From NCBI GenBank assembly GCA_964545285.1, contig CAZJEW010000001.1, positions 1 to 63,390 of the forward strand: a stretch of 63,390 nt of DNA, written 5' to 3'. This DNA comes from an uncultured Clostridium sp. Its GTDB lineage: Bacteria > Bacillota_I > Bacilli_A > RF39 > UBA660. The notes under the pieces were generated by a model. It did not search any database. It saw nothing but the letters and a program-made list of their open reading frames with translations, and was not told where the DNA came from. Below, in pieces: positions 9,701-63,390 of the stretch; positions within the stretch are counted from its first letter, which is position 1; every line of letters starts with the position of its first letter. The position numbers and the translations under genes are program-made.

Positions 9701-9990
9701 TATTTAAACAATCTAGATAAAACTGATTCCGTTTTAATTCTTTTATTACTTGAATCTAAATAATTTATAGAATTAATTTTTCCTTTTATTGATAAATTTC
9801 CTTGAAAAGTATCAAGCTTTAATAATTCTAAGCCCTCACCTTTAATTATTATAGGTCCCATTACTGATTCAACAAAAAATTCACACTCATCAAAACTGCT
9901 TATTTTTTTTATACCAGATAAAACGATGTTTTTTCTATCAGTAATACTTATATTATGATTTAACACCTCCACAGTAGTTAATTTATCCAT
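9700..9990 (-). CDS. yabP: sporulation protein YabP
   Basis: YabP-like sequence (ITDRKNIVLSGIKKISSFDE, IKGEGLEL) and synteny. Confidence 0.8.
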   Translation of the reverse strand: MDKLTTVEVLNHNISITDRKNIVLSGIKKISSFDECEFFVESVMGPIIIKGEGLELLKLDTFQGNLSIKGKINSINYLDSSNKRIKTESVLSRLFK

Positions 9991-10051
9991 ATTATCTCCT
10001 TAATTAATAATATGAAAAAAGAACTACTATATGAGTCCTTATTATCATTTA

Positions 10052-10336
10052 CTACTCTTCGTCTGCCTCTTTTGTATCTTCTTCGGCATTTTCATAAGCA
10101 TCAAGTATTGTCTTCTCAAATGTAGTTCTTACTTCTTGATTAATTGGATGAACAATATCTTTATATTCTCCGGCAGGTGTCTTACGACTTGGCATAGCGA
10201 TAAATAAATTTTCTTTGCCTTCGATTATTCTAATATCATGAATTGCAATAGCATCGTCTATAACAACTGATGCAATTCCCTTCATTCTAGAATTTTCTAA
10301 TTCTACCTTATGAACTCTTACTGATGTAATTTCCAT
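10052..10336 (-). CDS. spoVG: septation/sporulation regulator SpoVG
   Basis: MEITSVRVHKV...FIAMPSRKTPAGEYKDIVHPI; start at 10336 preceded by AAGGAGG. Confidence 0.95.
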   Translation of the reverse strand: MEITSVRVHKVELENSRMKGIASVVIDDAIAIHDIRIIEGKENLFIAMPSRKTPAGEYKDIVHPINQEVRTTFEKTILDAYENAEEDTKEADEE

Positions 10337-10405
10337 AGTATACCTCCTTAACATTAAGATAATTTAATTGTACTACAAAAAAAAGACAATATCAACTATT
10401 TTTGT

Positions 10406-10621
10406 TTAATTAAACTTTGATAGAATAACTGTTTTAGTTAAAATATCAGTATATGAGAATGTTTTTATTCCTTTATTAGTAGTTATTGTGAAAATATTAG
10501 AATGCATTTTGGTAATATATCCTTCTAAATATTCGTACTTGTTTCTTCCAAGAAATACTTTGATTTTAAGTTTTTGGTTTAACATACTTTTAATTTTGTT
10601 TTTAATGATATCTATATTCAA
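10406..10621 (-). CDS. veg: Veg protein (copy 1)
   Basis: Similar to B. subtilis Veg (FSYTDILTKTVIL vs SYSYADILTETVEL); TTG start one nt after the yabG stop, with a GGAG RBS inside the yabG 3' end. Confidence 0.88.
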   Translation of the reverse strand: MNIDIIKNKIKSMLNQKLKIKVFLGRNKYEYLEGYITKMHSNIFTITTNKGIKTFSYTDILTKTVILSKFN

Positions 10622-10622
10622 T

Positions 10623-11310
10623 TTATATTTCTCCTCTTGGATAACCTGTTAACATTGTACCATTTACTTCTAACCCACCAATTCCATCTTCTTTATAATA
10701 TGTTTCAGATAACAATTCTTTTAAATCTACAGTTTTATTTACGCACGATAATGCCAGATATGAAGCAACTATAGCAGGATCTAAAGCATGAATGTTAACC
10801 CTTTTGGGACTTGATGCAAACGAAGAACCCGATTTTATTAATTCTTCATAATTACTTTGACAAGCTCCAGAAAATATTATTATATCTTTTCTATATCTTC
10901 TTATCATTTTTACAGTTTCAACGAAAAATTCACTATTTTTATATTTTTTCCCATTTTTACCTTTTTTATAGTAAGCATCATGACCTGTTATTACAACAAT
11001 ATTTGGATTGTATTTATTAATTAATTCAATTATAATATTCTTATAATTTTCTTCACTACTAATATATCCATAAACTTTAATATTCTGATTCTTATAATAA
11101 TTAATACACTTTTCAAGATAGTTTTTATCGCTATCTAGATGCAAAACAACTCCCGGTATATAAAAATACGTATCTGAATCAACTCTTCTTAAAACGTCTT
11201 TGTTTTCTTTTTTTTTAGGAATAGGCATTAATATTAAATCATTAATACTAGCATCCGCATATAATCTAACATCGCAACCTTTTAGATATACTATATTATC
11301 TTCTATTCTA
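10623..11310 (-). pseudogene. 5'-truncated duplicate of yabG (lacks about the first 21 codons and has no upstream start)
   Basis: The YabG reading frame runs from the duplication junction at 11310 to the stop at 10623. The first in-frame ATG (MPIPKKK, 11228) has no Shine-Dalgarno sequence. Confidence 0.75.
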
Positions 11311-11407
11311 TATGAACTCTTACTGATGTAATTTCCATAGTATACCTCCTTAACATTAAGATAATTTAATTGTACTACAAAAAAAAGACAATATCAACTA
11401 TTTTTGT

Positions 11408-11623
11408 TTAATTAAACTTTGATAGAATAACTGTTTTAGTTAAAATATCAGTATATGAGAATGTTTTTATTCCTTTATTAGTAGTTATTGTGAAAATATT
11501 AGAATGCATTTTGGTAATATATCCTTCTAAATATTCGTACTTGTTTCTTCCAAGAAATACTTTGATTTTAAGTTTTTGGTTTAACATACTTTTAATTTTG
11601 TTTTTAATGATATCTATATTCAA
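11408..11623 (-). CDS. veg: Veg protein (copy 2, identical)
   Basis: Identical 71-aa translation, offset 1002 nt from copy 1. Confidence 0.88.
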   Translation of the reverse strand: MNIDIIKNKIKSMLNQKLKIKVFLGRNKYEYLEGYITKMHSNIFTITTNKGIKTFSYTDILTKTVILSKFN

Positions 11624-11624
11624 T

Positions 11625-12377
11625 TTATATTTCTCCTCTTGGATAACCTGTTAACATTGTACCATTTACTTCTAACCCACCAATTCCATCTTCTTTATAA
11701 TATGTTTCAGATAACAATTCTTTTAAATCTACAGTTTTATTTACGCACGATAATGCCAGATATGAAGCAACTATAGCAGGATCTAAAGCATGAATGTTAA
11801 CCCTTTTGGGACTTGATGCAAACGAAGAACCCGATTTTATTAATTCTTCATAATTACTTTGACAAGCTCCAGAAAATATTATTATATCTTTTCTATATCT
11901 TCTTATCATTTTTACAGTTTCAACGAAAAATTCACTATTTTTATATTTTTTCCCATTTTTACCTTTTTTATAGTAAGCATCATGACCTGTTATTACAACA
12001 ATATTTGGATTGTATTTATTAATTAATTCAATTATAATATTCTTATAATTTTCTTCACTACTAATATATCCATAAACTTTAATATTCTGATTCTTATAAT
12101 AATTAATACACTTTTCAAGATAGTTTTTATCGCTATCTAGATGCAAAACAACTCCCGGTATATAAAAATACGTATCTGAATCAACTCTTCTTAAAACGTC
12201 TTTGTTTTCTTTTTTTTTAGGAATAGGCATTAATATTAAATCATTAATACTAGCATCCGCATATAATCTAACATCGCAACCTTTTAGATATACTATATTA
12301 TCTTCTATTCTATCAATAATAAAAATAATGTCATTACCATATTTCTTTCTAGACACGTAGTCTCCAATTTTTAACAT
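11625..12377 (-). CDS. yabG: sporulation-specific protease YabG (peptidase U57), full length
   Basis: 250 aa with VVITGHDAY and FSGACQS motifs; rsmA-yabG-veg order as in B. subtilis. Confidence 0.85.
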   Translation of the reverse strand: MLKIGDYVSRKKYGNDIIFIIDRIEDNIVYLKGCDVRLYADASINDLILMPIPKKKENKDVLRRVDSDTYFYIPGVVLHLDSDKNYLEKCINYYKNQNIKVYGYISSEENYKNIIIELINKYNPNIVVITGHDAYYKKGKNGKKYKNSEFFVETVKMIRRYRKDIIIFSGACQSNYEELIKSGSSFASSPKRVNIHALDPAIVASYLALSCVNKTVDLKELLSETYYKEDGIGGLEVNGTMLTGYPRGEI

Positions 12378-12420
12378 ATTTTCTCCTGTTAAATTATATT
12401 ATAAAATAAAAAAAATATAT

Positions 12421-13203
12421 CTAATTTATATTATTAGATATATATACATAATCTGAAACAGATAAATTTTCTGCTCTATAACTTAAGTCTTTTCCGACAT
12501 CGTTTAACAATTTTAGAAGTTTAACTTGATCATAATTACTTAAGTTATTCTTCAAATTTTTTCTTTTATGCATAAATGAATCTTTTACTATTTTTTCAAA
12601 CAATTCATAATTGGTAATTTTTTCTTTATTTCTTTTAATAAGTTTAATTACAACACTATCAACCTTTGGAATTGGATAAAAACATTTTTTATTTACAACA
12701 CAAATCTTATTTACATCATAATTATATTGTAAAAATACTGAAATTGATGAGTACAACTTATTATTAGGTTTTGATATAAATCTTTCACCAACTTCTTTTT
12801 GAATCATAACTATAACCTCATCAGGATTACATTCATAAGTAACTTTTTTAATAATCGGAGTGGTTATATAGTATGGTAAATTTCCAATGACAATAATTTT
12901 ATCATAATGATTTACATATTCTTTTAAATTTACCTTTAAAATATCTTCATAAATTATTTTAAGATTACCGGTTTCATATTTTGAAAGAGTTTCCTTTAAT
13001 CTAGTATCTATTTCAAAACATATTACATTAGTATCGAGCTTAGAAAGATAAGATGTTAATGCACCTGCTCCAGGTCCTATCTCAATAATTAGTGAGTTTT
13101 TTACATATTCTACATTATTAATAATTTTTTCTATTATATTTTTATCATTTAAAAAGTTTTGACCAAGATTTTTTTTGTACTCGAAATTTCTCATTAATTC
13201 CAT
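12421..13203 (-). CDS. rsmA: 16S rRNA (adenine1518/1519-N6)-dimethyltransferase RsmA/KsgA
   Basis: LGQNFL motif, SAM site EIGPGAGALT, NLPYYITTPI. Confidence 0.93.
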   Translation of the reverse strand: MELMRNFEYKKNLGQNFLNDKNIIEKIINNVEYVKNSLIIEIGPGAGALTSYLSKLDTNVICFEIDTRLKETLSKYETGNLKIIYEDILKVNLKEYVNHYDKIIVIGNLPYYITTPIIKKVTYECNPDEVIVMIQKEVGERFISKPNNKLYSSISVFLQYNYDVNKICVVNKKCFYPIPKVDSVVIKLIKRNKEKITNYELFEKIVKDSFMHKRKNLKNNLSNYDQVKLLKLLNDVGKDLSYRAENLSVSDYVYISNNIN

Positions 13204-13745
13204 CCTTCTCTAAGGACTTCAAATTCCAAATTTCTAACTCTACCAACATTTTTAATAGCATAATCTTCATTTTCAGTTAATAAATCTATATCATTTCCAC
13301 CTACACCCCTATCAAGAATAATTGCAACAATTGGTTCTTCAGATAACTTGTTTACAGAAAATCTTATAATCGTTCCGCATGGATAATTTTTACTACTTGC
13401 AGCAATTCTAATTGTTCCATATACATTATCATTGTAATAAATACCTTCTTCTAAAACATTTGTTCTTGGGGGGCAAGCTAAGTACCCACTACATAAAGCA
13501 CAATCACCAGCATATCCAGTTAAATCACCATTAAAAGAATAAATAGATGTATATGCACTTTGCTTATACAATAGTTTTTGACTATTCTCAATTACTTCTT
13601 CATCTAATACTTTACCTAAATTAGTATTAAGTGCAACTGTCAAAGTAGAATCATTAAAAGTAGAATTTTTAATAAAAAACAAAATAGTAATTAAAATAAT
13701 TACTTCTGTTGCCATTTTAATTCTGCTTAGAACGTATTTTCTCAT
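13194..13745 (-). CDS. 3D-domain (MltA/RlpA-like double-psi beta-barrel) secreted protein, YabE-like
   Basis: N-terminal TM anchor; C-terminal 3D-type region (GTIIRF...ILDRGVGGNDIDLL); occupies the yabE position between tatD and rsmA. Confidence 0.6.
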   Translation of the reverse strand: MRKYVLSRIKMATEVIILITILFFIKNSTFNDSTLTVALNTNLGKVLDEEVIENSQKLLYKQSAYTSIYSFNGDLTGYAGDCALCSGYLACPPRTNVLEEGIYYNDNVYGTIRIAASSKNYPCGTIIRFSVNKLSEEPIVAIILDRGVGGNDIDLLTENEDYAIKNVGRVRNLEFEVLREGWN

Positions 13746-13773: not shown

Positions 13774-14529
13774 TTATATTTCTAAGTCAAAAACATTAAT
13801 AGCATTTTCTGTAGTTTTTTTGATCACTTCTTCAAATGAAATGTTTTTAATTTCTGCAATTCTTAATGCAACATATTTAATATTATCAGGAGTGTTTTTT
13901 TTCCCTCTAAAAGGTTCCGGTGATAGAAAAGGACTATCAGTTTCTAATAATAACCTATCCAAATCTATTTTTTCAATTACTTTGTATAAATTTGAATTTT
14001 TAAATGTTAAAACTCCACCAATTCCTAAGTAATATCCCATTTTAACAAATTCTCTTGCCATTTCAACACTACCAGAGAAACAATGAATAACACCCCTAGA
14101 TTTGTATTTTTTTAAAATATTTAATGTATCTTGTATTGAATCTCTCGTATGAACTACTATAGGTAAATTATATTTATTTGCTAAAAGTATTTGTTTTATA
14201 AATACTTCTTTTTGCTCTGGAATGTTATTTTTAGAATAATTGTAATCTAATCCTATTTCTCCTACAGCAACAAACCTATTATTCTTTAATAACGTTTCTA
14301 TTTCTATCAAATCATTATTAATATTTTTATTAATATTTTGTGGATGAATACCACATGTAGGGAATAAATAATTTTTATACTTTTTAGAATAATTTAAAAC
14401 TTCAATTGTAGTGTCCAAATTATCCGCAGAATTTATAACACATTTAACATCATTACTTTTAATTGTATCAACCAAAACATCAATACTATCAAAAAATTCA
14501 TCAATTATATGAGCGTGTGAATCAATCAT
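13774..14529 (-). CDS. tatD: TatD-family metal-dependent hydrolase (YabD)
   Basis: MIDSHAHI, GEIGLDY, VVHTRD, ETDSPFL motifs. Confidence 0.9.
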   Translation of the reverse strand: MIDSHAHIIDEFFDSIDVLVDTIKSNDVKCVINSADNLDTTIEVLNYSKKYKNYLFPTCGIHPQNINKNINNDLIEIETLLKNNRFVAVGEIGLDYNYSKNNIPEQKEVFIKQILLANKYNLPIVVHTRDSIQDTLNILKKYKSRGVIHCFSGSVEMAREFVKMGYYLGIGGVLTFKNSNLYKVIEKIDLDRLLLETDSPFLSPEPFRGKKNTPDNIKYVALRIAEIKNISFEEVIKKTTENAINVFDLEI

Positions 14530-25412: not shown

Positions 25413-25427
25413 TTCTTCCTTTATAAA

Positions 25428-25505
25428 AATAGTGCACATGCAAGTTGTGTTTATGGCTGCTTTCTTCCGATTCTGACCCGTTCACACTTCTTGCATTGCA
25501 CTGAT
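25428..25505 (-). ncRNA. ffs: small (4.5S-type) signal recognition particle RNA
   Basis: The minus strand reads AGUGCAAUGCAAGAAGUGUGAACGGGUCAGAAUCGGAAGAAAGCAGCCAUAAACACAACUUGCAUGUGCACU. It has the domain IV signature GUCAG..CGGAAG.AAGCAGC with a GGAA tetraloop. The 5' and 3' arms pair into a long hairpin, followed by UAUUUUU. A TTGATA-17-TATAAT promoter lies 7 nt upstream. Confidence 0.72.
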
Positions 25506-25508
25506 AAT

Positions 25509-25537
25509 ATTATATCAAATCAAAAGCATAATATCAA
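25509..25537 (-). promoter_or_regulatory. sigma-A type promoter of ffs
   Basis: Minus strand: TTGATA (25532-25537), 17-nt spacer, TATAAT (25509-25514). Confidence 0.6.
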
Positions 25538-25547
25538 CATTTTTACA

Positions 25548-25763
25548 ATGTTCCACGTGGAACATTATATTTTAACATATAGTATAGAACTTATTTAGAA
25601 AGTATTAATTATAATATATAAAAATATTTCCCGGGAAATATTTTGTTCGTGTTGTGTTTTTGTTTTTATGTTCCACGTGAAACATAAAAGACATTATTTA
25701 TTTCCCGGGAAATAATTTACTATATTTTTGTGTTAAAAATCAACAATGTTCCACGTGGAACAT
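25548..25763. repeat. array of five alternating palindromes (three ATGTTCCACGTGGAACAT-type, two TATTTCCCGGGAAATA)
   Basis: P1 at 25548-25565 (perfect), 25668-25685 (one arm mismatch) and 25746-25763 (perfect). P2 at 25625-25640 and 25699-25714 (both perfect). Confidence 0.85.
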
Positions 25764-25776
25764 AAAAAAAGAAGCG

Positions 25777-28251
25777 TTATTCTGCTTCTTCTGCGTTTTC
25801 AGTTACATTATCTTCATGATCGATAATTGATATAGATGCAACTTTACTATCATATTTAAGATTAAGTAATCTGACTCCTTGTGTTACACGTCCCATACTT
25901 GAAACTGTTGAAACAGGAATTCTGATAACTATGCCTTCATTAGTAACTATCATAAGATCTTTTTCTTCTGTACAATTTTTGAAACCTATTATATTACCAT
26001 TCTTTTCTGTAATATTTAGTGTACTAACACCTTTACTTCCTCTTTTAGTTTTCCTATATTCTTCTGTCAAGGTTTTCTTACCATACCCATTTTCAGTAAC
26101 CACTAAAACATTTGTATTCATATTCGTAACTTCAGTTCCTACACAAGTATCACTTGTTAAATTAATTCCTTTAACACCTGATGCAGTTCTGCCCATTACT
26201 CTGATTTCATTTTCATCGTATCTTGCCATTCTTCCCTTTGAAGAACACATTAATACTTCGTATGTTCCATCAGTATTAGAAACTGATATTAATTCATCGT
26301 CTTCTTTTAAAGAAATGGCAATTTTACCGCTCAGCCTAATATTATCAAACTCAGATATTAAAGTTCTTTTAACTAATCCGTTTTTGGTACTAAATAGAAG
26401 AAATTTATCACTATTATCATTTTCAATTTTAACAACAGCATTAACTTTTTCATCTTTGTCGATTTGAATTAAATTAATTAGAGGCAATCCTTTTGCTGTT
26501 CTTGAAAATTCTGGTATTTCATAGCCTTTCAATCTGTATGCTTTTCCTTTATTAGTTAAAAACAATACATAATCATGAGTGTTTAAAGATATTATATTTT
26601 CAACGAAATCTTCTTCGTTTGTAGTCATACCCTTAATACCAACACCACCTCTATTTTGTGCTTTGTAAGTATCTGTTGTAATCCTTTTAATATATCCTTT
26701 TTTAGTAATAGTCAATACAATATTTTCGTTAGGAATTAATGACTCGTCTTCGATAAATTCTATTGCAGTATTATCTATTCTTGTCTTTCTTTCATCTCCA
26801 TACTTATCTTTAATTTCAGTCATTTCGTTCTTTAACAGTTCTAATAGTTTATTTTCATTAGATAAAATTTCTTTATATTCTTGAATTAATTTAAGCAATT
26901 CATTTAATTCCTCATCTATTTTATCACGCTCTAAACCTGTTAATCTTCTTAATTTCATTTCTAAAATAGCTTCGCATTGTGCATCAGATAATGCAAACTT
27001 ACTCATTAATTGCTCTTTAGCTAAAATGTCGCTCTTTGAAGATTTAATAATTCTTATTACTTCATCAATATTATCTAAAGCAATTTTATATCCTTCTAAT
27101 ATATGGGATCTAGCTTCTGCTTTTGATAAATTAAATTCAGTTCTCCTATAAATAACACTTTTTTGATATTCAATGTAGTATTTTATAATATCAATTAAAC
27201 CTAATATTTTTGGTCTTCCGTCATGTATCATTAACATGTTTATTCCAAAAGTTGATTGTAGTTGAGTAAACTTAAATAAGTTATTTAAAACAACATTAGC
27301 ATTTGAATCTCTTCTAAGATCTATAATTATCTTCATTCCGTGATCTAAATTTGTATCATCATGCAAGTCGGCAATACCATCAATAGTTTTATCTGCAACT
27401 AATTCAGCTATTCTATGTATTAATGCATTTTTATTTAATTGGTAAGGTATTTCTGTAATAATTATTTGACTATGATTGTTGTTTTCCACTATTTCAACTT
27501 TTGATCTAATTGTTATTGTACCTTTTCCACATTCGTAAGCTTTTTTAATACCACTTGAACCTAAGATAATAGCACCTGTTGGAAAATCTGGTCCTTTAAT
27601 ATATTCCATCATTTCAGATAATGTAATATCTGGATTATTAATATACGCTATACACCCTTCTAAAACTTCTGATAGGTTATGTGGTGGAATATTAGTAGCC
27701 ATTCCTACTGCAATACCCATTGTTCCATTAACTATGATGTTTGGAAATCTACTTGGTAAAACAACAGGTTCTTTTAAACTTCCATCATAATTTCCTATAA
27801 AATCAACTGTATCCTTGTTAATATCTCTTAACAATTCCATAGATATTTTTCCAAGCCTAGATTCAGTATAACGCATTGCGGCTGCTCCATATCCATCTAT
27901 TGAACCAAAATTACCATGTCCATCAACCAAACAATACCTATAACTAAAATCTTGAGCCATCCTAACAAGAGAATCATATACAGCAGTATCACCATGAGGA
28001 TGATAATTACCAATAACATTTCCTACTGTTTTAGCACTTTTTTGATATGCCTTGTCGGGTGTGAACCCTGATTCAAACATGCTATACAATATTCTTCTGT
28101 GTACGGGTTTTAATCCATCTCTTAAATCAGGTAATGCACGTTGAATAATAACACTCATAGAATATTCCATAAAAGAATCCTCCATAACATTGTTAATATT
28201 TACGTGTTCTAATTTATCGATGTCTTTATTTAATTCATTATTATCTTCCAT
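25777..28251 (-). CDS. gyrA: DNA gyrase subunit A
   Basis: [14 protein letters not shown], catalytic AAMRYTE, C-terminal beta-pinwheel repeats. Confidence 0.97.
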
Positions 28252-34571: not shown

Positions 34572-34851
34572 ATTGCCCTTTTTATACTTTGATTATAAAA
34601 CAAAATAATATAAAATTAAAGCAATAAAAAATTATTAACACTTATAATAACAAGTTATTAACAAAAAGTAAACAAAATTATTCACTAAATCACGTGTTCT
34701 AAAACAGTTACTAACATTATTAACAATTTTATTATAAACAAAATATTATTATGTTAACAACTTGTTGATAAATGTTAATTATATGTTAATAAGTTAACAT
34801 AATATATTTAAAATTAATTTAGAATATGATAATATATAATAGGAGATTTGA
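34572..34851. other. oriC DnaA-box cluster upstream of dnaA
   Basis: TTATTAACA at 34632, 34655 and 34717; reverse complement TGTTAATAA at 34784; TTATTCACT at 34678; near-copies at 34752 and 34773. Gene orientation switches here. Confidence 0.7.
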
Positions 34852-36309
34852 ATGAAAAATGAATTACTAAATTATTTAATTAAGTGTTTTGAGGTATATA
34901 AAGATAATAATTATGAATTTTTATTAGATTATGTCAATTCCTATAATTGCAGATTAAATGAATATGAAAAAAATATTTCTAATGTTACTAATAATATATT
35001 TAAATCAATTACTAATGTTTTAAGTTATAAAAAAATAAAATATTCTTACAAAGAATCTAATAAATCAATTAAAATTAATTTAATTTTTTCAAATAATAAT
35101 TATCCAACAACTCCAACAAATATTATTGTTCCTGTTTTTGTAGAAAATTTTTTAAGAATATCAATTAAACTAATTAATTATTTAATTGATAATAAAATTG
35201 ATTGTAATATTAAATTATCTAAAATTAATAAGATTGATTTATTTGTAATTAGTATATATGACTTTAAAAAAGCAAAAGAATTTATGATTTATTATAGTAA
35301 TGATAAAGAAATGTCTAATGATATAAAAAATAAAAATAATCCTTTGTTTTTAACATATTTTGGTTTAAGTGTATACACATGTATAAAACCATTTAATTTT
35401 TTGGATTTATACCTATATTGTTTGTGTTTTTATTTTAAAAACATTAAAAAAAGTGAAGATATAACTATAAATTCATTGTTAGAATTTTTATTAAAATTTA
35501 ATAAAAAAGAAAACAACATACTAAAAAAAGAAATGATCAATATAATAATAAAAACAATAAATATTAATAATAGCTCTAAAACAATTGATTACTTATTTAA
35601 TTATAACGCAAATATGAATTTAGGTAGTTTTGATTTGTCCAGTTATAATTTAAAATTAGATTCAAATAAATTAATCTTTTTTGAAAATAAAGAAAAAACG
35701 GTATTAATTGTATTTGGTGGAGAAGATTATTTAAATATATGTTATTCAAAATTTTATAATAATGTAATAGAAAAATATCCAAATGATTTATTATATTGCT
35801 ATTTTCAAAATATTTTTTACAAAATATTAGAAGATAAATTTGAAAATTTTGAAAATATATTGGATTTTTCAAATAGTAATGAGGATATAATATATCAAGA
35901 ATTAATGCTTATTTCATCTGGATATTTTGGTTACAAAAAAATAGGAATAAAATTAGAAATTATAAATAATATGATAAAAATTATTTTAGAAAAAAAACTA
36001 AATTGTGTAATAAAGCAAGAACAAGAAAATAATAATATTCCTAATGATGTTGTAATTTTTCCATTTAATTTGGAATATGCAAATAAAATTATTAAATTAA
36101 AAAGTGGAAAACTATCAACTGTCTTTAATTATTTTAGAGATTATTATGTATTAGATTATATTCCATTGAAATCTAAAATTAATTTAAAAAATGGTTCAAT
36201 TGTTACTGGGGAGGAATTTTTAAAAAATCTATATAATATAATTGAAGATTATGATGATTTTAAAGATTTAATTGATGATCAAATTGAAATGATAGAAATA
36301 TTAGATTGA
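34852..36309 (+). CDS. hypothetical protein, 485 aa, no recognisable domain
   Basis: Long uninterrupted ORF in roughly 20% GC sequence with a strong RBS (AGGAG, 7-nt spacing); lies between oriC and rpmH. Confidence 0.6.
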   Translation: MKNELLNYLIKCFEVYKDNNYEFLLDYVNSYNCRLNEYEKNISNVTNNIFKSITNVLSYKKIKYSYKESNKSIKINLIFSNNNYPTTPTNIIVPVFVENFLRISIKLINYLIDNKIDCNIKLSKINKIDLFVISIYDFKKAKEFMIYYSNDKEMSNDIKNKNNPLFLTYFGLSVYTCIKPFNFLDLYLYCLCFYFKNIKKSEDITINSLLEFLLKFNKKENNILKKEMINIIIKTININNSSKTIDYLFNYNANMNLGSFDLSSYNLKLDSNKLIFFENKEKTVLIVFGGEDYLNICYSKFYNNVIEKYPNDLLYCYFQNIFYKILEDKFENFENILDFSNSNEDIIYQELMLISSGYFGYKKIGIKLEIINNMIKIILEKKLNCVIKQEQENNNIPNDVVIFPFNLEYANKIIKLKSGKLSTVFNYFRDYYVLDYIPLKSKINLKNGSIVTGEEFLKNLYNIIEDYDDFKDLIDDQIEMIEILD

Positions 36310-36350
36310 CAATTAAACTTATATTATTTATAATTTTAGAGGAGGCAAAG

Positions 36351-36473
36351 ATGAAAAGAACATTTCAACCAAATGTGAGTAAAAAAAGTAAAAAATCTGG
36401 TTTTATGTCTAGAAACAACAAAAATGTATTAAAAAACAGAAGACAAAAAGGAAGAAAAGAATTATCAAAGTAA
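36351..36473 (+). CDS. rpmH: 50S ribosomal protein L34
   Basis: My own translation is MKRTFQPNVSKKSKKSGFMSRNNKNVLKNRRQKGRKELSK; RBS GGAGG; below the ORF-track cutoff. Confidence 0.93.
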   Translation: MKRTFQPNVSKKSKKSGFMSRNNKNVLKNRRQKGRKELSK

Positions 36474-36502
36474 AAATTACTTTTAATTAAGTAATTTTTT
36501 TT
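36474..36502 (+). terminator. intrinsic terminator/attenuator after rpmH
   Basis: AAATTACTT pairs with AAGTAATTT, followed by T-run. Confidence 0.6.
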
Positions 36503-36525
36503 ATATAATTATGTAGAGGGAACAT

Positions 36526-36849
36526 ATGAACAAAAAATATATTATTAAGAAGAATTATGATATTCAAGAAGTTATTACTAAAAATGAACAAAAAGTAGTT
36601 AATAATTATTTTGTTATATATAAAAAAGCCAATAATATTAAAAATAATAGATATTGTATTAGCGTTAGCAAAAAAATAGGTAAAGCTTTTAATAGAAATT
36701 ATTATAAAAGAATAATAAAAGATATTCTTAATAAAAATAAATTTAATAATTCATATGATTATGTTATAATATTAAGGACTGGGATAATTAACAAGAAGTA
36801 TTTGGATATTCAAAATTCTTTGTTAAATATATTTAAAGGAGAAAAATAA
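36526..36849 (+). CDS. rnpA: ribonuclease P protein component
   Basis: rpmH-rnpA-yidC order; basic RNR-like region KAFNRNYYKRIIKD. Confidence 0.88.
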   Translation: MNKKYIIKKNYDIQEVITKNEQKVVNNYFVIYKKANNIKNNRYCISVSKKIGKAFNRNYYKRIIKDILNKNKFNNSYDYVIILRTGIINKKYLDIQNSLLNIFKGEK

Positions 36850-62988: not shown

Positions 62989-63029
62989 TTAAACTCCATA
63001 AGGTTTATTGTATGGAATATTATAAATTA

Positions 63030-63390
63030 ATTTTACGGCTTTGGTCGAGTTGAATTTCTCTAATATCTTACCCTTTGTTACCTTTAGGCGATTTCTCTTT
63101 AAAAATATTAACCATGAGTTACCTATATGATCACTCGATCACCACTTAGTCCGCACTTCAATCTTTATAATAATTACATTCTAGAGGTTTTCCCAGACAT
63201 TTAATTCTACTGTTATTCGCTTTTGCAATTTGTTTTTCAAGTTATATCCCAACAAATCACTCACGACATATGCTTTGTATTCATCGATGCGATAGAAGGA
63301 AGTAAATATATGCCATTATATTATATCCTTAAACCTAAAATTATATACTCACCCCAATCTGGGCGAAAGAAGCAAAATATATAAAGTATC
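63030..63390. other. ORF-free, GC-enriched non-coding segment (candidate structured RNA or decayed element), truncated by the window end
   Basis: No ORF of 60 aa or more on either strand. I counted about 36% GC over 63031-63160, well above other spacers here. There is a local hairpin TGATC-ACTC-GATCA at 63128-63141. Confidence 0.4.

Follow-up and report, generated by a model that had tools for sequence, protein, structure and literature searches.

Spontaneous tandem duplications that form independently of RecA are familiar from the chromosomes of Salmonella and Escherichia coli, largely through the literature of the Roth and Andersson laboratories. Microhomology-mediated tandem duplications (MTDs), by comparison, form between pre-existing microhomology arms of several nucleotides and are usually short. 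A preprint on MTDs presents them as reversible subclonal variants (bioRxiv 10.1101/2020.03.03.972455). In experiments with E. coli, a tandem duplication captured a promoter and thereby activated a silent transferred gene (PMC6614815; follow-up, PMC11111574). Both a classification scheme for tandem duplications and a means of quantifying them are available in the 'Tandem' tool (bioRxiv 10.64898/2026.05.22.727201).

Here we describe a small tandem duplication at rsmA-yabG-veg-spoVG, one of the most conserved gene neighborhoods of the Firmicutes, in a 63,390-nt stretch of DNA (the window) from an uncultured Bacilli-class bacterium of manure-fed biogas digesters. The segment lies ∼21 to 22 kb from dnaA/oriC in a host genome of low GC content (∼25%). 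We conclude that it is very probably a genuine, heritable tandem duplication of 1,002 bp, present in at least two copies, of one illegitimate origin and polymorphic in this bacterium.

Anatomy of the repeat

Positions 10309 to 11310 and 11311 to 12312, compared directly at an offset of 1002, agree at 1002 of 1002 bases with 0 mismatches, which bears out the two identical 1,002-bp copies proposed in a first-pass annotation of this DNA. An exact repeat of 1002 nt is not due to chance. At the same offset, equality extends 0 nt past the left edge and 1 nt past the right edge (a T at both 11311 and 12313); the longest repeated segment is 1003 nt, and the homology at the junction is 1 nt. A repeat search of the 63-kb window recovered the pair spaced 1002 apart (family D1) and no other long repeats, and TRF gave no report for the window because the longest period that it considers is 500. 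The two copies adjoin head to tail, as expected of an illegitimate tandem duplication. All genes at the locus are on the minus strand, as judged from ORFs and Pfam, and the features are as follows.

10052 to 10336, minus strand: intact spoVG, encoding 94 aa when read from MEITSV (an ATG further upstream would move the start to 10354); Pfam SpoVG, 4.5e-34.
10309 to 11310: repeat copy 1, promoter-distal in the direction of transcription, with the spoVG promoter/leader and 9 codons, veg, and yabG codons 23 to 250; identical to 11311 to 12312.
10367 to 10395, minus strand: original spoVG promoter-like site, TTGATA-17-TACAAT, with a ribosome-binding site at 10343 to 10349; promoter scan and sequence.
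10406 to 10621, minus strand: extra copy of veg, lying downstream of the duplicated spoVG promoter-like site; 71 aa, TTG start, ribosome-binding site GAGGAG; Pfam VEG, 2.1e-13.
10623 to 11310, minus strand: 'yabG fragment, codons 23 to 250, lacking codons 1 to 22; ORFs and translation.
11303 to 11338, minus strand: 11-codon stub ORF containing the novel junction, MEITSVRVH-IE-stop, 9 SpoVG codons followed by out-of-frame yabG sequence; translation across the junction.
11311 to 12312: repeat copy 2, promoter-proximal, running on into the 5′ end of yabG at 12313 to 12377; sequence comparison.
11369 to 11397, minus strand: duplicated spoVG promoter-like site, TTGATA-17-TACAAT, with an AAGGAGG ribosome-binding site at 11345 to 11351, facing 'yabG-veg-spoVG; promoter scan 10/12, a consensus match only.
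11408 to 11623, minus strand: veg in its ancestral context, directly after intact yabG and identical to 10406 to 10621; ORFs and Pfam.
11625 to 12377, minus strand: yabG, intact, 250 aa, SH3-like N terminus and catalytic domain; Pfam Peptidase_U57, 2.3e-78, to the end of the profile.
11666 to 11751, minus strand: 86-nt yabG segment, also at 10664 to 10749 and thus in both copies; alignment and protein variants.
12421 to 13194, minus strand: rsmA (ksgA), upstream flank gene and anchor for right-flank contigs; Pfam RrnaAD.

The left boundary is position 1 of spoVG codon 10, numbered from the MEITSV start at 10336, and that on the right falls at 12312, on the third base of yabG codon 22; the first-pass annotation had placed them in spoVG codon 9 to 10 and near yabG codon 22. 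Its gene inventory (two veg genes, one intact yabG, one 5′-truncated yabG, and a second spoVG leader) agrees with the ORFs and Pfam matches, its figure of about 1 nt shared by the ends with the 1 nt measured, and its junction letters with the sequence that we found between 11311 and 11310, ...TTCTATTCTA joined to TATGAACTC.... One example of a 31-mer that spans this junction is TCTTCTATTCTATATGAACTCTTACTGATGT.

The only intact gene to be duplicated is veg, and both copies have their own ribosome-binding site. The 94-aa SpoVG product is encoded identically on 18 public contigs. Intact YabG follows a published domain model with an SH3-like N terminus and a catalytic domain (PMC10681294) and has no match among PDB sequences. 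Assignment of its catalytic residues by His–Cys spacing was abandoned (46 expected, 40 present) in favor of invariance across 16 relatives, in which H132, D133, and C172 do not vary. In the truncated copy, the first in-frame start is Met50 (ATG at 11228), where there is no ribosome-binding site; the fragment is therefore probably untranslated and, with part of its SH3-like domain gone, its sequence is that of probable dead cargo. No mobility or replication genes were found in the unit among ORFs and Pfam matches, and a mobile element was thus ruled out as its nature. An in-frame SpoVG′–YabG fusion protein was also ruled out, as the stub is out of frame and is predicted to terminate after 11 codons.

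Independent assemblies and polymorphism within the species

In Logan, the 31-mers within an accession are all distinct, and contigs of ≤150 bp are not reported (PMC12424806). A tandem repeat therefore collapses to one unit-length contig, with flank contigs that overlap it by 30 nt. The Logan assemblies compared here (k = 31) are separate biogas-plant metagenomes, independent at the level of the sample; SRR8925725 and SRR8925823 are separate digestate samples of PRJNA533495, a series of 59 samples from 56 plants (PMC7842101). A contig of 1003 nt from SRR8925725 (L091) aligns without gaps to exactly 10309 to 11311 and 11311 to 12313. Its counterpart in SRR8925823 (L124), also of 1003 nt, spans 11311→10309 and has veg at the same offset. 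L124 is listed in two samples, with one further similar place. A 1003-nt unit contig is present in at least three samples in all. On the two sides of the unit in SRR8925823, the left-flank contig (L101) begins at 10338, k−1 = 30 nt inside the unit, and the right-flank contig (L144) ends at 12284, again 30 nt inside, with a 31-aa cut YabG product. The end position of L144 had been predicted ahead of the look-up; the contig was found by an rsmA look-up with a flank of 130, and a 183-aa protein look-up with a flank of 905 did not list it. Where the unit carries intact yabG, assemblies are interrupted precisely at 10309 and 12313; only the other haplotype is continuous. These breaks at the exact boundaries in independent assemblies are strong, if indirect, support for a genuine strain-level structural variant.

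At least eight other samples of the same species (∼99.9% identical) cross both boundaries uninterrupted and are thus single copy, and veg, yabG, and spoVG are duplicated in 0 of 90 related loci; ∼80 related species likewise have a single copy. An exact Mfd look-up gave two contigs, of which the one shown is single copy. A GTDB genome scan with YabG returned relatives of at most 62% identity among the matches listed. Exact look-ups of the 250-aa YabG and the 201-aa fragment gave none in the contig index, and the cluster table puts both on one NCBI contig. The comparison with related genomes that the first-pass annotation had proposed thus gives a single copy in close relatives and same-species samples, and its suggestion of heterogeneity is right at the level of the species, most samples being single copy. 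Its suggestion of a very recent event is doubtful, because the same unit is found in at least three samples with haplotypes that differ by 1 to 3 SNPs (relative to the window, L091 by 2 and L124 by 1). Separately, the unaligned tails of three other contigs (L007, L100, and L102) reflect a different breakpoint, with a core of ∼26 to 28 nt between veg and spoVG, that is unrelated to the duplication boundaries.

The 86-nt yabG segment is deleted in most other strains of the species, which shifts the yabG frame and is likely a loss of function in this sporulation protease; the allele that carries the duplication is the rarer one, with yabG intact. This deletion allele was not mentioned in the earlier annotation. 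Assembly is interrupted at the 86-nt indel in SRR8925789, SRR29243442, and SRR29243455, so alleles are mixed within these single samples. In SRR8925789 and SRR29243442, the contig continues beyond the right boundary and stops only at the indel; the intact allele may therefore occur in single copy as well, in which case its association with the duplication would be weaker.

The first-pass annotation had offered an assembly artefact as one alternative. Such an artefact would arise if contigs that overlap had been concatenated unmerged, or through an error at a loop or in gap closing, and no DNA molecule would then hold the junction. Perfect identity, near-zero junction homology, and arbitrary intragenic breakpoints do have the look of an unmerged 1-kb overlap. 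Moreover, the longer public contigs of the species without exception hold a single copy, and a junction 35-mer has 0 matches in the JGI metagenome contigs; the 86-nt segment also has 0 matches in that collection, which apparently lacks the intact-yabG haplotype. However, the artefact of one assembly cannot make branch points at the same two nucleotides elsewhere, and a different program, applied to other samples, breaks at both boundaries and yields the unit contig with its k−1 overlaps; the artefact is therefore largely refuted, and we consider it extremely unlikely. The de Bruijn signature establishes that either side of the unit has two contexts but does not identify them; the junction sequence itself is found only in the window, since a Logan junction contig would be <150 bp and thus unreported. 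The second context might accordingly belong to something other than a tandem array, either a 1,002-bp excised circle, which gives the same junction of unit end to unit start, or a copy at another locus, plasmid, or phage that the assembler threaded in. Yet the window contig joins unit end to unit start directly, which excludes insertion elsewhere, and no gene for replication or mobility is among the contents of the unit (veg, the yabG fragment, and the spoVG leader only). A circle could therefore only have been left over, unable to replicate, when a tandem duplication was resolved, so that this reading already assumes the duplication; we regard a non-tandem context as highly improbable.

More weight attaches to the alternative of a real junction with a wrong copy count, the short-read assembler having walked a graph loop once through a population that mixes single-copy and duplicated cells or holds at least three copies, as selection for veg/spoVG dosage might produce. 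Short-read graphs cannot count the copies of a 1-kb perfect repeat, and tandem duplications amplify and segregate. Two copies are what the shortest walk through the junction edge yields, the collapse of the unit in Logan fits, and the three samples with mixed alleles point the same way. No observation contradicts this alternative directly; the unit contigs of SRR8925823 and SRR8925725 carry only the intact allele, with no indel break, so the duplication-bearing strain dominates those samples. We consider a misjudged copy state possible, though not probable, and favor a heritable duplication of at least two copies.

Breakpoints, promoter geometry, and possible selection

Local alignment of 80-nt windows around the breakpoints scored 15 against a null of 10.8 ± 3.6, and a 1-nt match at breakpoints has a chance expectation of 31 to 53%. 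No IS or rRNA sequence is present in or beside the unit. This lack of breakpoint homology argues for an illegitimate, RecA-independent join, and the 1-nt overlap and near-null alignment agree with the first-pass view that the duplication was illegitimate and not repeat mediated. Recombination between pre-existing repeats was ruled out, as there is no extended flanking repeat and the arrangement is not R-D-R-D-R. We propose that the duplication arose once, by a homology-independent join in which spoVG codon 10 of one sister chromosome would have been connected, with a 1-nt overlap, to yabG codon 22 of the other; unequal sister-strand joining and template switching are possible routes. It would now circulate as a structural polymorphism, some strains being duplicated, always on the intact-yabG allele, and most being single copy with the 86-nt deletion.

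The unit holds the whole spoVG promoter-like site together with its ribosome-binding site, and its duplication may thus have set a second promoter before 'yabG-veg-spoVG (promoter capture). The junction puts TTGATA-17-TACAAT and AAGGAGG (11345 to 11397) ahead of 'yabG-veg, an element that is promoter-like by consensus only; the scan overall gave 31 sites versus 27.9 ± 6.7 expected, that is, no enrichment for a consensus scan of 25% GC DNA. A consensus scan of the same 25% GC DNA found no terminator-like site between the duplicated promoter-like site and 'yabG-veg-spoVG, and veg and spoVG therefore probably gain transcription; veg dosage is predicted to be doubled. Neither the promoter-capture geometry of the unit nor the out-of-frame SpoVG′ stub figured in the first-pass annotation.

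This geometry raises the question of selection. A selected promoter-capture or dosage variant, in which the extra gene copy and second spoVG promoter raise Veg and possibly SpoVG, or in which an SH3-less YabG catalytic domain is made from Met50, has several points in its favor. The same breakpoints in at least three samples with SNP-distinct haplotypes suggest persistence despite expected recombinational loss; the unit contains a complete promoter-like site and ribosome-binding site without a terminator-like site, and veg is the one gene duplicated intact; promoter capture by tandem duplication has a precedent (PMC6614815). In addition, the region just upstream of veg holds the 86-nt deletion and a cluster of SNPs (10651, 10656, and 10679), both of which coincide with or adjoin TGGTACAAT, an extended −10-like motif. 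However, TGGTACAAT lies within conserved YabG codons (G-T-M), so its conservation is not attributable to a promoter, and the promoter calls are not above background. The absence of a ribosome-binding site at Met50 argues against the catalytic-domain version, the duplication-bearing strain is in the minority among samples, and recombinational loss of a 1-kb repeat may be slow. On balance, we consider such a selected variant unlikely. Selection on veg dosage, which the first-pass annotation had raised, is possible from the gene content of the unit, and we lean toward a neutral or mildly beneficial variant. We judge improbable a broader scheme of regulatory rewiring kept by selection across digesters, in which the extra spoVG promoter and veg would raise Veg, SpoVG, and perhaps SH3-less YabG, the lineage would keep sporulation-protease function in balance with the majority yabG-deleted lineage, and gene conversion would keep the copies identical even as populations come to differ in the unit.

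Relation to known tandem duplications

The oddity in this public contig is thus best read as biology, not assembly error, and gene models here need care: the recorded 201-aa 'YabG' needs to be labeled as a fragment produced by the duplication, and the second Veg as the product of a duplicate gene. The mutation is of a known, ordinary kind that would not surprise a specialist. It offers a natural, multi-sample case of a small, homology-independent tandem duplication that persists in the wild with promoter-capture geometry. If depth or expression showed selection, it would be a field case of a duplication-driven regulatory change of the sort usually studied in laboratory evolution.

The locus resembles the assembly errors known as collapsed or expanded repeats in its two identical adjoining copies, its arbitrary boundaries, and a copy number that short reads cannot be trusted to give; it differs from them in that its boundaries recur as graph branch points in the assemblies of other samples. 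With MTDs it shares a perfect tandem duplication, precise revertibility, and polymorphism in the population, whereas its junction homology of 1 nt is no more than chance and its unit is 1,002 bp long. As in the E. coli promoter capture, a promoter from the downstream end is put before genes of the upstream end, here the spoVG promoter-like site before 'yabG-veg, through a microhomology-level or illegitimate join. In E. coli, a silent gene was activated under selection, and its expression was quantified; at the present locus, veg already has expression signals of its own, and the gene directly behind the putatively captured promoter is a probably dead fragment. In structure, it resembles the RecA-independent duplications of Salmonella and E. 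coli, which are likewise head to tail, joined with zero to a few nucleotides of homology and no flanking repeat, with intragenic breakpoints; in them, too, the ancestral arrangement is single copy, and homologous recombination between the copies is expected to remove the duplication. Those cases are mostly from the laboratory, transient, and usually much larger (kilobases to hundreds of kilobases), whereas the present duplication is small (1 kb) and occurs in natural metagenomes, in several samples and on SNP-distinct haplotypes.

Structure of the duplicated segment

Direct comparison of positions 10309-11310 with 11311-12312 gave a match at 1002 of 1002 positions. At an offset of 1002, the match continues 0 nt leftward and 1 nt rightward (T at 11311 and 12313), giving a maximal repeat of 1003 nt with junction homology of 1 nt. 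A repeat finder recovered the same pair and no second long repeat within the 63-kb window; TRF reported no repeat because its period limit of 500 is below the 1002-bp unit. The left boundary falls at spoVG codon 10, numbered from the MEITSV start, and the right boundary is the final base of yabG codon 22. ORF and Pfam analyses place all genes of the region on the minus strand.

Genes across the duplication, in transcription order
13774-14529, minus strand, tatD (first in transcription order)
minus strand, gene for a 183-aa protein, listed with tatD ahead of rsmA
12421-13194, minus strand, rsmA
11625-12377, minus strand, yabG, 250 aa (Peptidase_U57, 2.3e-78)
11408-11623, minus strand, veg, first copy
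10623-11310, minus strand, 'yabG, the 5'-truncated copy (codons 23-250), after the junction
10406-10621, minus strand, veg, second copy
10052-10336, minus strand, spoVG
minus strand, yabP, yabQ, divIC, and tilS, after spoVG

The first-pass annotation had described two identical 1,002-bp head-to-tail copies, bounded within spoVG codon 9-10 and near yabG codon 22 and sharing about 1 nt of homology between their ends, that create two veg genes, one intact and one 5'-truncated yabG, and a second spoVG leader; all its factual statements were verified. The 250-aa YabG and a 201-aa 'YabG' (the Met50 ORF of the fragment) are both deposited as proteins from this contig, and the public record thus annotates the duplication fragment as a gene.

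Independent assemblies and origin of the duplication

By construction, the de Bruijn graphs behind the Logan assemblies hold each 31-mer of an accession once, and contigs of ≤150 bp are unreported (PMC12424806). A perfect tandem duplication must therefore collapse into a unit contig equal to the maximal repeat and two flank contigs, each entering the unit by k-1 = 30 nt, the junction contig being too short for reporting. The metagenome contig L091 (SRR8925725_44141) is 1003 nt long and aligns gap-free, at 99.8% identity, exactly over 10309-11311 and equally over 11311-12313. A second 1003-nt contig, L124 (SRR8925823_89151), carries veg at the same offset (691-906) and so spans 11311→10309; it is tabulated as the same contig in two samples, plus one further similar place. 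The left-flank contig of SRR8925823 (L101, 100% identical to the window across 2787 nt) starts exactly at 10338 (= 10309+29). From this contig, the right-flank end was predicted beforehand to lie at 12284, leaving 31 codons of YabG. L144 (SRR8925823_3066, 4231 nt) encodes rsmA and then a YabG product that the contig end truncates to exactly 31 aa, which places that end at 12284, as predicted.

An assembly artifact was among the options raised by the first-pass annotation. Logan assemblies of other samples break at both boundaries with k-1 overlaps, and because a different assembler, applied to other samples, places these branch points at the same two nucleotides, no error in the window assembly can produce them. 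The duplication is very probably real. The Logan signature establishes two contexts on each side of the unit; the junction sequence itself is read in the window only, and a junction 35-mer had no match in JGI contigs. Short-read graphs give no copy number for the unit, and we regard it as possible, if somewhat doubtful, that copy number or within-sample heterogeneity makes the literal two-copy state less than the whole story.

At least eight samples (SRR8925827, SRR8925821, SRR8925722, SRR8925814, SRR29243445, SRR29243440, SRR29243436, and SRR16642428) contain same-species contigs that cross both boundaries unbroken, with the gene order rsmA-yabG-veg-spoVG-yabP. Across 90 related loci (∼80 species), no extra copy of veg, yabG, or spoVG occurs. 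From this comparison with related genomes, a check proposed at first pass, we infer that the single copy is the ancestral state; the duplication is polymorphic and lies on a particular haplotype.

Locally aligned, the 80-nt windows that surround the breakpoints scored 15, versus 10.8±3.6 for random window pairs, 9% of which scored at least as high, and chance alone would give a 1-nt match in 31-53% of cases. The surroundings of the unit contain no IS, rRNA, or other repeat. With breakpoint homology of only 1 nt and no nearby repeats, the duplication bears the mark of an illegitimate, RecA-independent join, through unequal sister-strand joining or template switching. The chance-level alignment bears out the earlier proposal of illegitimate duplication rather than recombination between pre-existing repeats. 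Recombination between repeats was ruled out by the 1-nt homology and lack of a flanking repeat, and classical microhomology-mediated duplication by the 1-nt junction homology.

Identical breakpoints that lack homology imply that all carriers descend from one event. Relative to the window, L091 differs at 10651 and 10679, and L124 and another contig, L130, differ at 10656; the two unit copies in the window are identical while unit haplotypes vary between samples. This pattern suggests some age of the duplication and homogenization between copies, with the proviso that popped bubbles in Logan contigs could mask copy differences.

The yabG deletion and predicted effects on expression

All those single-copy contigs, together with JGI and ENA protein records, lack 86 nt of yabG, aligned to 11666-11751 and 10664-10749 in the two copies (records with the deletion: contigs L001-L010 and L092 and proteins P0007-P0016, from Logan, JGI, and ENA). 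The same segment is missing from all remaining public yabG entries for this species. The deletion edges share a 2-nt AT microhomology. The resulting frameshift swaps residues 210-250 for 14-16 unrelated residues (ending ...WYNVNRLSKRRNIN); because 11 positions in this segment, invariant across 16 relatives, are lost, the deletion is probably inactivating, and the sporulation protease of the majority lineage looks inactivated. Two contigs, L003 and L004 (SRR8925722 and SRR29243445), carry an additional 1-nt frameshift that leaves the deleted yabG as two ORFs of 61 aa and 146 aa, which would fit continuing decay of the gene in that lineage.

The intact allele is present in the window and in the unit contigs L091 and L124; among recorded contigs, only that of the window encodes a complete intact YabG. 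Such a record would be expected if most intact alleles belong to duplicated units, since Logan is unable to assemble yabG across the boundary. Contigs of SRR8925789 and SRR29243442 cross the right boundary and stop exactly at the indel start, and L099 begins at the opposite edge. Breaks exactly at the indel in contigs of SRR8925789, SRR29243442, and SRR29243455 indicate that some samples hold both yabG alleles. An intact single-copy haplotype may therefore exist, which complicates the expected link between intact alleles and the duplication.

The three haplotype SNPs (copy 1 coordinates) lie within 30 nt, at the indel edge, in or beside an extended -10-like motif, TGGTACAAT (10654-10662 and 11656-11664), ∼35 nt upstream of the veg start. 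This motif could be the veg promoter; it overlaps conserved YabG codons and is inseparable from protein constraint.

The unit includes a full spoVG promoter-like site (TTGATA-17-TACAAT, 10/12 match), an AAGGAGG ribosome-binding site (RBS), and spoVG codons 1-9. In the direction of transcription, the new order is yabG, veg, [P_spoVG, RBS, MEITSVRVH-IE-stop], 'yabG(23-250), veg, [P_spoVG], spoVG. The SpoVG' stub is out of the yabG frame and stops after 11 codons. 'yabG retains the invariant H132, D133, and C172, and is without part of the SH3-like domain (described in PMC10681294). Since no ATG, GTG, or TTG precedes Met50 in the yabG frame and Met50 has no RBS, 'yabG is most likely untranslated. 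The second veg copy is intact and has a GAGGAG RBS of its own. No terminator-like sites occur in 9900-13300, and only ∼10 nt separate the veg stop codon from the spoVG -35 element. The captured spoVG promoter would probably add transcription of veg, and of spoVG via read-through. Promoter capture by tandem duplication has been shown experimentally in E. coli, with the same geometry of a captured promoter ahead of the unit genes (PMC6614815). A promoter scan found 31 sites versus 27.9±6.7 expected, consensus matches in AT-rich DNA that are not above background, so all expression consequences are hypothetical. A selective role of veg dosage or of promoter capture is possible, though unlikely.

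The interval from the veg stop to the spoVG -35 contains a ∼26-28-nt core (ATCAAAGTTTAATTAAACAAAAATAG; 10396-10421 and 11398-11423) at which contigs L007/L110, L100, L102, L135, and L140 begin or diverge abruptly from the window (samples with such breaks: SRR11845636, SRR11845623, SRR16642429, and ENA ERZ4239965). One side reads veg-core-foreign sequence, and the other foreign-core-spoVG. These breaks, unrelated to the duplication boundaries, could reflect an insertion, present in some strains, with a duplicated att-like core, or else another copy of the core in the genome.

Genomic setting and relation to known duplications

Among the matches listed, YabG identity to the closest GTDB species representatives is only 57-62%; these are MAGs of uncultured gut Bacilli labeled Tenericutes, Erysipelotrichaceae, Clostridium sp. 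CAG:302 / CAG:914, and Candidatus Onthousia. Public contigs ∼99.9% identical to the window come from several run series, of which SRR8925xxx is PRJNA533495, a set of Illumina 2x150 metagenomes for which 56 full-scale, manure-fed biogas plants in China supplied 59 digestate samples (PMC7842101; also PMC13644194). The window spans one full NCBI contig (63,390 nt). Its GC content is ∼25%, and GC skew changes sign near 34-36 kb. This switch, with minus-strand genes on the dnaA side and plus-strand genes on the yidC side, places oriC within the window. dnaA lies ∼21-22 kb from the duplication, whose genes are co-oriented with replication.

Other features of the window
28.3-34.6 kb, minus strand, dnaA, dnaN, recF, and gyrB
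from 36.8 kb, plus strand, yidC, jag, mnmE, and mnmG
34572-36848, probable oriC region, GC-skew minimum, GC ∼18%, between dnaA (minus) and yidC (plus)
34852-36309, plus strand, 485-aa ORF inside the probable oriC region, without a Pfam match
62996-63390, minus strand, OLE (ornate large extremophilic) RNA, 157.8 bits, 5' end cut by the contig end
56591-56681, plus strand, PGK RNA motif
25422-25512, minus strand, SRP RNA
25524-25787, adjoining the SRP RNA gene, a nested pair of near-palindromic inverted repeats (arms of AATGTTCCACGTGGAACATT type separated by 178 nt, and of TTCCCGGGAAATA type separated by 20 nt), possible terminators or operator-like sites

Among spontaneous mutations, tandem duplications whose junctions lack homology form a well-known class and are usually unstable because their copies recombine. 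The duplication in the window is a new instance of a kind already known, ordinary in kind and modestly interesting. It is mildly notable in that several samples of natural communities contain it, that the majority lineage alongside it carries the yabG deletion, and that it is sited in a deeply conserved gene neighborhood; the yabG-veg adjacency is common to B. subtilis and C. difficile (PMC10681294).
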